Positions 1 through 6,000 of a stretch of 64,000 nucleotides of DNA are shown here, piece after piece (position 1 is the stretch's first letter; the number at the start of each line of letters is the position of its first letter). The position numbers are program-made. The DNA is taken from NCBI RefSeq assembly GCF_057098645.1, contig NZ_CM169472.1. One strand, 5' to 3'.

Positions 1-3000
1 CGGCAAAAGGCACGCAAAACGGCGACAGCGCCGGATGCGTGGTGGTGGCACCGCCAGCCGTGCCGGGTGGTAAGTTCCGCATTCTTGAGCGTCACCAGTG
101 GCGCGGGATGGACTTCCGCGCCCAGGCTGACGCCATCAAAAAACTGACCGAACAGTACAACGTGACCTATATCGGTATCGACTCAACCGGCGTTGGTCAC
201 GGGGTTTACGAGAACGTGAAAGCGTTTTTTCCTGCCGTCCGGGAGTTTGTCTACAACCCCAACGTTAAAAACGCCCTGGTACTCAAGGCCTACGACATTA
301 TCAGCCACCGCCGTCTGGAGTTTGACGCCGGACACACCGACATAGCGCAGTCCTTTATGGCAATACGTCGCGCCACCACCGCCAGTGGCAACCGCCCGAC
401 CTATGAAGCCAGCCGCAGCGAAGAAGCCAGCCACGCCGATCTGGCCTGGGCAACAATGCACGCACTGTTTAACGAACCGCTGCAGGGCGAATCCGCCAAT
501 ACCAGCAATATTGTGGAGATTTTTTGATGGGAAAGAGTAAGAAGAACCGCACTGCGGCGACGAAACAGATCCAGCTTAAAAGTCAAACTACAGCCGAAGC
601 ATTCAGCTTCGGCGATCCCGTTCCTGTTCTGGACCGCCGAGAACTGCTGGATTATGTGGAATGCGTACAGATGGACCGCTGGTATGAGCCGCCCGTCAGC
701 TTTGACGGACTGGCGCGCACCTTCCGCGCTGCCGTGCATCATAGTTCCCCGATTGCAGTAAAGTGCAACATTCTGACCAGCACCTACATCCCTCACCCGC
801 TGCTCAGCCAGCAGGCTTTTTCGCGTTTTGTGCAGGACTATCTGGTATTTGGTAACGCCTACCTGGAGAAACGCACGAACCGCTTCGGTGAAGTTATCGC
901 CCTTGAACCTGCCCTGGCAAAATATACCCGACGCGGGTTAGACCTGGATACCTACTGGTTTGTGCAATACGGTATGACCACGCAGCCATATCAGTTCACG
1001 AAAGGCAGCATCTTTCATCTGATGGAACCGGACATCAACCAGGAGATCTACGGCCTGCCCGGTTATCTTTCTGCCATTCCGTCAGCCCTGCTCAACGAGT
1101 CCGCCACGCTGTTCCGCCGAAAGTATTACATTAACGGCAGTCATGCTGGCTTCATCATGTACATGACCGATGCTGCGCAGAACCAGGAGGATGTGAACAA
1201 CCTCCGCAACGCAATGAAAAGCGCCAAAGGTCCAGGCAACTTCCGCAACCTGTTTATGTACTCACCTAACGGCAAAAAGGATGGTCTTCAGATTATCCCG
1301 TTGTCAGAAGTCGCGGCGAAGGATGAATTTCTGAATATCAAAAATGTCAGCCGCGACGACATGATGGCTGCGCACCGTGTACCACCACAAATGATGGGGA
1401 TAATGCCTAATAATGTTGGGGGATTTGGGGATGTGGAGAAAGCCTGCAAAGTATTTGTTAGAAATGAGTTAACAGTATTACAAAAAAAAATACTGGAACT
1501 GAACACTTGGTTAGATGATGATGTAATTAATTTTAATGAGTATATGCTTTGATGAAATAGGGGGCTAACGCCCCTATTTTTAATCATTTTCTGGTTTGTT
1601 TGAAGTTTCATTTACAGGCTGGATCACATCCTTATTAAAATGGCGCGTTTGTTCGACTTTACCTTTTCTAGAAAGGCCTGCACCTTCTAAAATTGAATCG
1701 ATTTTATCGCCACCATTAGCTAAGAAATGCTTAAAATTTTCCGATGATAACATTTCCATTATAGGCGATGAATGGGTAGCTTCTTCAACAAATCTTAATG
1801 GCGGCTCCTCCAGTCGAGTAAGTGCATTACCAAATAACCTTTGGGTAAAGTCGCTATCAAGTTGGACAGCTTCTCTTCTATATCCCTCATAAGCTTTGGA
1901 TACTGAGGCCTTGAATTCATAATCCTCTGCCAATCTGAATCGCTGACCAATTTGTTTCGTTGCTAACCAAGCAAACCATAATGGTGCTCCAACACTTAAA
2001 ATGGAGAGTAAAAGTTGAATAGCTAACTTTATACCTGATGCGTCAGGGTTTGACAGATATGCTTCGAGAGCATGTAAACGCGTATAACCAACAGCAGCAC
2101 CTGCAACCAAAGCACCTATTAGTCCACATACCCACCAACGTATGCTCCGGTTTAATTTTTCTGCTTTATCTTGAAATGCCCCAGCCAAACCTTTTGAAGT
2201 AGTAGTTCTAAATGCCTCTTCACATTTATTAATATAACCCTGAGCTTCTTCACGGAGAGATTGTAAATAATCTTTTGCATCCTTGCTTGCATTCTGTTTC
2301 AGCGCCAAAATTTCTTGTCTGGCCTCATCTACGATTTTGGAGTTCTCTTCAGTCTCTTTAAGGGTAATGACTCCAACTTATTGATAGTGTTTTATGTTCA
2401 GATAATGCCCGATGACTTTGTCATGCAGCTCCACCGATTTTGAGAACGACAGCGACTTCCGTCCCAGCCGTGCCAGGTGCTGCCTCAGATTCAGGTTATG
2501 CCGCTCAATTCGCTGCGTATATCGCTTGCTGATTACGTGCAGCTTTCCCTTCAGGCGGGATTCATACAGCGGCCAGCCATCCGTCATCCATATCACCACG
2601 TCAAAGGGTGACAGCAGGCTCATAAGACGCCCCAGCGTCGCCATAGTGCGTTCACCGAATACGTGCGCAACAACCGTCTTCCGGAGCCTGTCATACGCGT
2701 AAAACAGCCAGCGCTGGCGCGATTTAGCCCCGACGTATCCCCACTGTTCGTCCATTTCCGCGCAGACGATGACGTCACTGCCCGGCTGTATGCGCGAGGT
2801 TACCGACTGCGGCCTGAGTTTTTTAAATGGCGGAAAATCGTGTTGAGGCCAACGCCCATAATGCGGGCGGTTGCCCGGCATCCAACGCCATTCATGGCCA
2901 TATCAATGATTTTCTGGTGCGTACCGGGTTGAGAAGCGGTGTAAGTGAACTGCAGTTGCCATGTTTTACGGCAGTGAGAGCAGAGATAGCGCTGATGTCC

Positions 3001-6000
3001 GGCGGTGCTTTTGCCGTTACGCACCACCCCGTCAGTAGCTGAACAGGAGGGACAGCTGATAGAAACAGAAGCCACTGGAGCACCTCAAAAACACCATCAT
3101 ACACTAAATCAGTAAGTTGGCAGCATCACCTCTTTAAGCATGCCATTAATATTTCTGCAATGCTCAACTGCGCTATTGTAAACATTTTTAACTTCATCAT
3201 TTGTTTCACGAAGCATTTTTACTGTTGTCGGTAGATTCTCGGCTGCATCATATGCTTCATTTATAGTTTTAATTTTCTCTTCTATATTACCAGTTTCAGC
3301 TGCAATTGCAGATATACCTGAATTATATAATTCTAATCTGCGTAAAATTTGCTTTGGTAATAAATTTCTATCTTTCAGCCTCTCAAATGAAAAAAGGTCA
3401 TTAATCCTATGAGAGATATATAACATTGAAATAACATAAGATGGTATAGCGGTCTGTTGAACTGATGCGTTACCATTGTTTATATGATTAATATTTTGCT
3501 GAGCATGATCCAGAGTGTAAATGAGCGCATCAATTACTGCAATGTCATCTGAAGATGGTACAAATTCCTGCATCTGATTAATTCTATCAGATAACATTTT
3601 TGGTAGTTCTATCAGATCCTCTTTATGTAAAAAAGGAAATGTGTACGGCCCAAGGTTTATAAAATCTTCCACAGGGAATACAAGACCATTAAGTGTTGTA
3701 TGTAAATTATCTAGTTTCTCTTTTAATTCAGTTAGTTTTTCGTTCATTAAAAAAATCCTTTATGACGCTATAGAACTTCCAGAGTAATCCGATAAAGATA
3801 TCATAAGACAATATTTTGGTATAAACACTTATTGCGCGCGCTCGTATCCCCGCCACGCCTGCCCGCTTTATGTAGTGGTTTTCATGCACCTGCATGATCT
3901 ACGCAAAAGCCCGCCAGAACTGGCGGGCCTTAACACAAAAGATCCTCAAACGATCATGCGATCTCATGCAGCATAGACATGCGCGCTTATGCAGAATGTG
4001 CAAAATCGTAACATACTCAGTAAGCGTGAAAACTAGAACGTGACAGCCTTGTCAAAGCCAGAAATAATTGTATAAGAAATAGACGAGTTATCAGCCTTGT
4101 TCACTTTGAACTTGGCACCTTTGTAAGCGATAACGTCACTTCCCTTAGAATCTACAGAAAAATCTGTTGTAAATGCTGCACGAGCCATATCGTTTGCAAA
4201 TTCACGATAGGTGAACTTCATTACACCGCCTGCATTTCCATTGTATTCGATAGTCTTAACCAATGAGTTACTAACTCGACACAGCCCATCAGGAACACGT
4301 TTGATAGAAATTTCTGATGCAGTATAAGAAGTACCATTTGGCGGTGATATCTCATTTTTTGCAGCATCGTAACTAACATAATCAACATAGTTACCGATTT
4401 GCCCATAGAGATTTTTTAACGCAACAGCTTGAGGGTTATGATAATTGCGGTAAATTCCATTCCCCTCACTGCAATATGTACCAGCAGCGATAGAAGACAA
4501 TGCACCATTAGCCGCACCAAGTTCTAGTACGTCCGTTTTAAATCCAGTAGCAGATGTGATAATGGGATCGCCCATGTAGGCGGTAGCACTTTGCCCAATA
4601 GCAGGCTTCACCACTTCAATAGCAGTGATATTTCGGTTAGAAGCATGTGGCACGCAACCAGTTAGGATTACAGCAAGAGATATTGGTAACGCTACATTAT
4701 TAATTTTCATTTTTAGCCTATTATTCTTTTCTTGACAAAAAACAAGGCGATATCCGATTGACATCGCCTCTCACTCATATGTAACCCTTTTTGATTAGTA
4801 AAAACAAGCGTCTATTGACAAAATCAATGCAGCCAGCTGTCGTCTTCCCACACCTTCTGCATAATTTTCATCACTTGTTTTCTTTCTTCGTCCAGTTGCA
4901 GTCCGGTCAGTTCCACACCGTTAGAGCTACCTTTACGGATACGGATTACCGTTTTGGGATACAGGGGGCGCAGATTGCGGTAAAGCTCGGATTCAAGGGC
5001 GTCCAGGGTAGACTGGCTAATCTTCTGCTCTTTATCGATCATTATTTCAATGCGCATAAAAGTCACCTCAGCTGATGACATCCATTGAGCGGTTGTATTC
5101 GTGGCTTCTGATTTTTGCCATGAGTTCATCAGTCAATTCAGAAACCCACTGCAGAGCCAGCCCCTTCTCTTCATCACTACACTCACTAGCCGCTACAAGC
5201 TTAAGAAAAAAATCAATGCGCTGGAGCTTCAAAGACTCCAAAAAATAGTCCTGCATCTTTCCTCCTATGACACCACAAGAAATACTGTATGTATAACCAC
5301 TGTTTATATTTACAGTATATAATAATCTTACTGATGTAAAACGTTTTTTTTACGCTTATCAGCTTGATATGCCTGGTATTATTAAGAGCACGAATTGTTA
5401 ACCAGCGTAATTAATACAGGTTCCGCCACTTATCATCTTCCTGCAAACGCTGGTTCCGATAGAAGATACGCAGGCCTGCTCCTGACGGAATACTGCCGCC
5501 GCGAAGGAGTAAATCGACCTCTTTCTCGCTGCCATCAAATCCTCTGGATTTCAGTTCATAGACGAGCTGCTGTCGTTGATGGTCTGTAATTCGCTGTTTG
5601 TAGTCTCTACGCCGTTTCGGTTTCACCAGACGTAACCTTGCAGCCAGTTCCCGGCGCTCCTTTTTGTTCATACTGTGCAGGTAATCGTGCAACTCCTTGT
5701 CATCCATGCGGGTAAAGTCCGTTCTGGGGTCCCCATCAGCTGATTTATCTTTCTCCTGTTGGTTCAAATTTTCAGCAAGGGGACAGTTATTGCCACGAGT
5801 CCAAGGGGCGCAAGCGCCCTGGTCGGCTGCCGCCTCCTGAACGTCAACGGCCTTACGAACCATTTTCCACTTCACTGCATGAGTACAAATCTTGCCCTCT
5901 GCAATGGGTGACCAGATGCCATAAATACGAATACCGTGATCGCCATAGGCGGTCGGCTCTTCGTTAATTTCATAAGCTGTTCTGATAAGGTGATATTTGC

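Follow-up and report, generated by a model that had tools for sequence, protein, structure and literature searches.

What was the gene that an insertion sequence has cut in two beside the cohesive-end site (cos) of a 186/P2-like prophage, and what did its product do for the element that carried it? The window, which is the whole 64,000-nucleotide stretch of contig NZ_CM169472.1 (NCBI RefSeq assembly GCF_057098645.1) analyzed here, begins within a 186/P2-type terminase gene and contains the disrupted gene at 1580..3747 on the minus strand, with an IS1 element between its two halves. The intact gene was probably a single-gene anti-phage system whose membrane-anchored product acted by abortive infection or exclusion; it has been inactivated in this genome.

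The inserted element is exactly 768 bp long (2363..3130, minus strand, in the same orientation as its host gene) and has the hallmarks of IS1: imperfect terminal inverted repeats (GGTAATGACTCC... and ...GGCAGCATCACC) whose arms agree at 22 of the 35 terminal positions, the intact and overlapping minus-strand frames insA (2800..3075, 91 amino acids) and insB (2378..2881, 167 amino acids), and an 8-bp target duplication, TCTTTAAG, which brackets the element as a direct repeat at 2355..2362 and 3131..3138. BLAST matches carry the annotation "IS1-like element IS1A/IS1B family transposase". The removal of IS1 and one copy of the repeat joins 3747..3139 to 2362..1580 in a single minus-strand open frame of 463 codons, free of further stops; a 9-bp duplication was rejected, since the deletion of 9 bp breaks the reading frame. 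The 1392 nucleotides of the repaired gene show 100% identity with an intact gene annotated in E. coli C51 (WP_001583354.1) and differ by a single base from that of E. coli HS (WP_001003256.1; NC_009800.1, 926128..927519), and IS-free alleles therefore exist. The original prediction, which had described IS1 within a repeat of about 8 bp, one repairable frame, and the IS1-free alleles to be looked for, is upheld in all but the length of the frame, which had been put at about 465 codons.

The insertion point lies in codons Leu204–Lys205–Glu206, which correspond to the left copy of the repeat. The 5' part of the gene (3131..3747, with the ATG at 3747..3745) retains codons 1 to about 206, which encode an N-terminal helical domain and the first half of a coiled-coil stalk, and it now forms a 212-residue open reading frame (ORF; 3109..3747) that terminates after six IS1-encoded codons. 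The 3' part (1580..2362) retains the second half of the stalk, a motif preceding the transmembrane (TM) region, both TM helices, a conserved core, a variable tail, and the stop codon. As IS1 parts residues 1–206, the putative sensor half, from the membrane module in residues 207–463, the gene is dead here. A search of 5426 complete E. coli genomes found the junction between flank and IS1 in none of them, which makes the insertion private to the genome from which the window comes.

The repaired protein has 463 residues, with TM helices identified by hydropathy at about 277–297 (TM1, 2081..2143, minus strand) and 314–338 (TM2, 1958..2032, minus strand). A helical soluble part of about 250 residues followed by two hydrophobic helices had been foreseen; the helices are borne out, but that outline omitted the approximately 125 residues past TM2, which are predicted to be cytoplasmic and include the best-conserved part of the family. 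Lys and Arg residues cluster ahead of TM1 and behind TM2, from which an N-in/C-in topology can be read, implying that the intact product would sit in the inner membrane with its N- and C-termini both cytoplasmic. In the AlphaFold2 model, which is all-helical with a mean predicted local distance difference test (pLDDT) score of 83.7, residues 1–125 form a compact N-terminal bundle (pLDDT of about 95), followed by a helix at 132–170 and one unbroken helix at 176–306 that leads straight into TM1; the TM2 helix extends to residue 368, and short helices reach to about residue 430, with a disordered tail.

Conservation is distributed unevenly along this chain. The highest score (0.75) is found in the cytoplasmic core behind TM2 (residues 339–410; 1742..1957, minus strand), whose consensus reads ...WFAWLATKQIGQRFRLAEDYAFKASVAKAYEGYRREA...RLEEAPLRLV..., and the motif ahead of TM1 and the TM helices themselves score 0.55–0.65, so that a conserved module spanning about residues 245–410 comprises this motif, a two-helix membrane hairpin, and the core of about 70 residues. 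The N-terminal domain (0.34), the variable coiled-coil stalk at about residues 130–255 (0.28), and the predicted periplasmic loop (0.33) score far lower, and short members of the family (320–380 residues) consist of a plain coiled coil and the membrane module, with nothing else. The invariant residues of the core are W332, W335, E349, D350, Y351, K354, R386, E389, and R393. Compared with an allele of 89% protein identity, the ratio of nonsynonymous to synonymous substitution rates is 0.115 for the whole gene and falls to 0.04 within the membrane module; this indicates purifying selection and, therefore, a functional gene family instead of an ORF artifact.

The gene occupies a slot with two fixed borders. 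On the left, the P2/186-type portal gene (Q/W, 524..1552, plus strand) converges with it, and a GC-rich hairpin that is terminator-like on both strands (1554..1580) lies between the portal stop (1552) and the gene stop (1580), forming the counterpart of 186 tW and P2 tQ and serving both convergent genes. On the right, an AT-rich leader (3748..3833, minus strand) with an AAGGA Shine–Dalgarno sequence (3756..3760), located 8 nucleotides ahead of the ATG, is followed by cos (3841..3859, minus strand), which was located by aligning the window to the annotated ends of phage 186 (window, GGCGTGGCGGGGATACGAG; 186, GGCGTGGCGGGGAAAGCAT). In P2 and 186, the interval from cos to the portal gene, filled here by the disrupted gene, is just 186 bp and 195 bp long, respectively, and contains only a terminator. 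With IS1 disregarded, the window is 94–99% identical to sister prophages up to about 1443–1534, at the 3' end of the portal gene, and again from 3832–3834, where identity resumes 7 bp from cos, defining a swap cassette of about 1445/1535..3833 with its right edge at about 3833.

The contents of this cassette differ among prophages with near-identical backbones, and known defense genes are among them. In E. coli H7, the slot holds a protein matching the PADLOC bSEFIR model (E = 1.9e-104), and in strain 95-3322 it holds an AbiU-like/AIPR protein (E = 9.6e-35); other sister prophages carry two small ORFs or a 454-residue paralogue that is 65% identical to the window protein, and a prophage in IMG/VR with a portal 93% identical to that of the window carries a slot allele that is just 41% identical. 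The gene, which lies beside cos between gene A and portal gene Q, is thus cargo of the gpA–gpQ cos-proximal hotspot defined by Rousset et al. 2022, which takes in both intervals on either side of cos (PMC9122126). This hotspot and that of P4 have been shown experimentally to be reservoirs of defense systems (PMC9122126). The expectation of a variable anti-phage cargo region is borne out by the slot-mates, and the location assigned earlier, between the portal gene with cos and a tum-like module, is right as to the cos-proximal region and wrong as to the sub-slot, since the gene sits between the portal gene and cos. The equation with the slot of P2 old and tin is imprecise, as these genes lie across cos from the disrupted gene, toward the replication genes.

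Relatives of the gene occur as lone cargo at several sites: the cos–portal slot of P2-like phages, even those with portals only about 34% identical to that of the window; the tail-fiber-assembly/sheath slot of P2 (Z/fun in P2); the psu–integrase hotspot of a P4-like satellite of Buttiauxella; a 4.7-kb mobilizable MobC/Rep plasmid, which has nothing else but a RelE toxin–antitoxin pair; a tRNA-Asn integrative islet of E. coli; an AlpA island of Pectobacterium; and a lambdoid Providencia phage, which gave the single match in a tblastn search of 50,697 phage records. One member lies directly downstream of a Lamassu operon, and others are found on 17 PLSDB plasmids, some of them from plant-associated and marine bacteria. 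Two distant homologues lie on contigs too short to reveal their surroundings. A member can be detected at the DNA level in about 1% of complete E. coli genomes; no genome has more than one, and the annotation is in every case "hypothetical protein". In at least 10 complete E. coli genomes, the member in the Z/fun slot consists of two separate ORFs of 216 and 174 residues, as at loci L092 (8820..10120, E. coli CUVET16-394) and L054 (7710..9010), and intact versions of 433 residues are present at L039 and L051; the split member may be a further inactivated copy or, alternatively, a variant that is naturally in two parts.

The family is large. The repaired protein matches phrog_34659, a family of unknown function in PHROGs v4, with E = 6.3e-87 (residues 55–438 against profile positions 55–413 of 433), and the related phrog_30912 with E = 2.4e-16 over residues 171–407. 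At E ≤ 0.001, the family comprises 1476 clusters at 50% identity, 423 of them below 1e-30, from Gamma-, Beta-, Alpha-, and Deltaproteobacteria and Bacteroidota. The earlier reading had stopped short of assigning a family, and this stands: phrog_34659 is the only assignment, with none in Pfam, NCBIfam, PADLOC, or PDB. The TM prediction and PADLOC search that it had called for gave two TM helices and no PADLOC family, and no characterized non-defense family was matched.

Searches with PADLOC-DB v2.0.0 for 11 family members found no catalogued defense family; the low-scoring matches (best E = 1.8e-6 to 9e-2) fell in the stalk and concerned the coiled coils of LmuB, JetC, DndD, the ZorA tail, and LeoBC, and among the best-scoring stretches reported for these members no alignment covered the core behind TM2. 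In Pfam, the repaired protein has no domain at E ≤ 0.001, and 84 aligned members gave isolated coiled-coil matches of single members only, with no SLATT or other transmembrane-effector model at this threshold. Foldseek comparisons of the model with AFDB50 retrieved only uncharacterized homologues, and those with PDB retrieved nothing with E < 0.4; weak matches to TolQ, colicin, and Vipp1/PspA were rejected as generic long-helix likeness. Membership in the MotA/TolQ/ExbB stator family, including Zorya ZorA, was also rejected: the protein has just two TM helices and no partner gene, the TolQ matches have E = 0.4–1.5, and the ZorA matches in PADLOC concern the coiled-coil tail instead of the TM domain.

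Members of the family have been catalogued before. In the tables of Rousset et al. 2022, WP_001583354, identical to the repaired protein, appears in Table S5A as "hypothetical", and a divergent member, which contains the family core ...WFAWLSTKQINQRFKLAEDYAFKASVAKAYEGYR..., is system #102 in Table S5B, described as "2 TM" with no Pfam domain and 32 occurrences; both are catalogued there as P2 gpA–gpQ hotspot cargo (PMC9122126). The family motif is absent from Table S2 of evaluated systems in the same work (PMC9122126). Neither accessions nor motifs of the family were found in the full texts searched, the DefensePredictor supplements, or the supplements of the 2026 P2/P4 preprint, and a keyword search found no published single-gene coiled-coil/TM defense system that matches it. 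Among randomly chosen loci of unknown function in the P4 satellite hotspot, six of eight have been found to protect against phages (10.64898/2026.02.27.708500, preprint), which makes a protective role more likely beforehand for any gene so placed.

An anti-phage role is favored because the family occupies four independent hotspots, because its alleles turn over on a constant backbone, because one member adjoins Lamassu, and because a variable putative sensor is joined to a conserved putative effector. In the mechanism proposed, the prophage would express a single-protein anti-phage factor, whose variable cytoplasmic N-terminal domain and stalk would sense an infection cue or regulate the protein, and whose conserved membrane module would be the effector, probably acting as a coiled-coil oligomer; by damaging or gating the inner membrane, this effector would prevent the incoming phage from completing its cycle. 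On a fine balance, the family is likely to be a new single-gene membrane-acting defense family that is in no current catalogue. A bolder version, which is unlikely, would make it an undescribed and widespread single-protein immune effector, in which the N-terminal four-helix bundle and stalk restrain the membrane module until infection triggers oligomerization and perforation of the inner membrane; such a protein, borne as an exchangeable cassette by P2-like phages, P4 satellites, and plasmids, would be a bacterial functional analogue, and conceivably a relative, of the "helical-bundle executioner" principle of plant CC-NLR proteins (Rx CC domain) and MLKL (N-terminal domain).

Several observations weigh against an anti-phage role. 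Searches of Pfam, NCBIfam, PADLOC, and PDB sequences, the last by single sequence and by profile, returned only coiled-coil noise, and the protein has no recognizable sensor or enzymatic domain. The DefensePredictor and 2026 P2/P4 supplements hold no independent prediction for the family, and no report of a tested member was found in the papers and supplements searched. Oligomerization is assumed, and the predicted template modeling score of the AlphaFold2 monomer is just 0.40. Of the gene's own terminator and promoter, which the original prediction had posited, the terminator is present as the hairpin at 1554..1580, but a consensus scan of the gene strand from the ATG to cos found no promoter-like sigma-70 site, the AAGGA ribosome-binding site being the only signal there. 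Finally, the P2 hotspot also holds non-defense cargo, including partition systems and cytolethal distending toxin (PMC9122126), and location by itself is therefore not proof. The interpretation of the gene as a defense gene has nonetheless gained strong circumstantial support from the slot-mates and from the P4, Z/fun, and Lamassu sites, and defense itself is still inferred from these associations.

This non-defense cargo gives substance to the rival that survives best, according to which the gene would be an accessory passenger, hitchhiking in permissive slots and serving, for example, in membrane stress, in host fitness, or in the maintenance of the element. The absence of any defense-specific domain in the PADLOC searches would fit this explanation, as would the partition systems and toxins housed in P2 hotspots (PMC9122126) and the occurrence of the family on plasmids of plant-associated and marine bacteria. 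It is nevertheless unlikely, since the gene is found alone in at least four slots whose characterized occupants are anti-phage and adjoins Lamassu in one case, and since alleles of 41–65% identity on one phage backbone suggest the diversifying turnover typical of immune genes.

Superinfection exclusion, in which the protein would block phage genome entry at the inner membrane in the manner of P22 SieA or T4 Imm, without killing or arrest, agrees less well with the predicted topology. Known exclusion proteins of the SieA and Imm type are far smaller than the 463-residue protein considered here. More than 85% of the latter is predicted to be cytoplasmic, including all conserved charged residues, and the predicted periplasmic part amounts to just about 14 residues (300–313) and is poorly conserved (0.33, compared with 0.75 for the core). 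These features make exclusion of this type quite improbable, even though a prophage-encoded, predicted inner-membrane protein in a lysogenic-conversion slot would suit it and the neighbor across cos (4033..4764) is homologous to 186 orf97, whose database record states that "expression from plasmid blocks 186 infection".

A role in counter-defense or in competition between elements, with the protein directed against systems of the host or of rivals on behalf of its phage, satellite, or plasmid, is very unlikely. Variable phage accessory slots can house anti-defense genes (10.1101/2023.04.06.535777); however, the protein is large and predicted to be membrane-anchored, the gene lies on the side with tum/orf97-type genes that is expressed in the lysogen, downstream of what reads as a t95b-like terminator, and P4-like satellites and small plasmids carry members without needing them for infection. 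That the protein is a secreted toxin directed at other cells, forming alpha-helical pores as ClyA and XaxA do, is scarcely credible, because no match to the ClyA/XaxA/AhlC families was obtained with NCBIfam, Pfam, or PDB profiles, Foldseek found nothing significant in PDB (best E = 0.4), there is no signal peptide and no partner-subunit, secretion, or lysis gene nearby, and both ends of the protein are predicted to be cytoplasmic.

The fate of the gene here follows a general pattern in this prophage. A second inactivating event has split the replication gene A (minus strand, from 5411), through an IS21-family element of 2639 bp (7417..10055; istA-like 8288..9934, istB-like 7516..8514) flanked by a 6-bp target duplication; beyond gene A lie Dam, cII, cI, and the integrase. 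As two genes have been split by insertion sequences, the prophage is decaying, and the disrupted copy in the window is ordinary prophage decay. The loss of the gene may have been neutral, or it may have been selected, for example because the membrane protein was costly or toxic to its bearer.

Across cos from the disrupted gene, the ORF at 4033..4764 (minus strand) encodes 243 residues with a lipoprotein-like N-terminus (LAVILTGC) and corresponds in position and length (243 residues) to 186 orf97; neither PADLOC nor NCBIfam gave a match for it. The same position in sister prophages is occupied by a DUF8087 gene or a 141-residue ORF or is empty, and varies independently of the cos–portal slot. 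A tum/DinI-like gene follows (4824..5129, minus strand). Between the orf97 homologue and cos, a strong hairpin at 3905..3930 (minus strand; GCCCGCCAG-TTCT-CTGGCGGGC followed by TTTTG) aligns with the t95b terminator located just before cos in 186; it was absent from the list produced by the terminator scan and was recognized by alignment with 186. An SOS-driven tum–orf97 transcript would therefore stop ahead of the cargo gene. At the other border, the final approximately 100 bp of the portal gene (about 1445..1552) diverge with the cassette, the remainder being 94–95% identical in sister prophages, and the pattern of identity suggests that cassette exchange recombines within the portal 3' end and at cos. 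Past the cI end, sister 186-like prophages carry an AAA_15/SMC_N ATPase (L005, 1..379) and a SNIPE/T5orf172 protein (L006, 1..631), and since these are also defense-type genes, one phage backbone has several cargo slots.

The rest of the window, from 15300 to 64000, consists of lambdoid-prophage and island DNA that is 99.3–99.7% identical to genomes of Shiga toxin-producing E. coli (STEC) O145. On the strength of this identity, a Shigella origin, which the load of insertion sequences had suggested, was rejected. It contains two 1310-bp copies of an IS3-family element (26754..28063 and 48308..49617) that are 97.3% identical, each with an Rfam ALIL frameshift pseudoknot; their size fits IS629, an element typical of STEC genomes. 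Rfam matches further include STnc100 (35334..35506), sok (40822..40996), DicF (49650..49701), EFASI (58979..59107), C4 antisense RNA with its a1/b1 targets and isrK (60922..61106), and four tRNAs (36279..36528, 54165..54251, and 55243..55315).

The disrupted gene thus points to a large family (about 1,500 clusters at 50% identity) for which Pfam, NCBIfam, and PADLOC contain no model and no relative has a solved structure. Because sequenced isolates, the commensal E. coli HS among them, carry intact alleles, this family is cheap to test. If an intact allele protects, it would represent a new single-gene membrane-anchored defense system with an unexplored conserved module, and the map of the P2 hotspot would be refined into two sub-slots parted by cos.

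The closest known systems in position are bSEFIR and AbiU/AIPR, which occupy the identical portal-to-cos position in 186-like prophages with flanks of 94–99% identity, each as a lone gene of 1.4–1.7 kb oriented as the window gene is. These proteins share no sequence or domain similarity with the window protein, and the family models that they match have no predicted TM segment. SEFIR, in work by Millman and colleagues from 2022, is said to be a domain that depletes nicotinamide adenine dinucleotide (NAD), whereas the window protein has no recognizable enzymatic domain. In its inferred logic, by which a TM module would compromise the membrane after a cytoplasmic signal, the protein resembles lambda RexB, P4 Gop, the TM effectors of CBASS, Pycsar, and retron systems, and SLATT (PMC9122126). 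These effectors need a separate sensor or enzyme partner, whereas the window gene stands alone, and for its conserved core of about 70 residues behind TM2 no counterpart was found and no SLATT or other Pfam match was obtained. P2 old, tin, and fun(Z), of which old and tin lie across cos, are unrelated to the family in sequence; they are non-essential lysogenic-conversion genes with anti-phage function in the cos-proximal and tail-fiber/sheath slots, and the family fills the equivalent hotspot regions.

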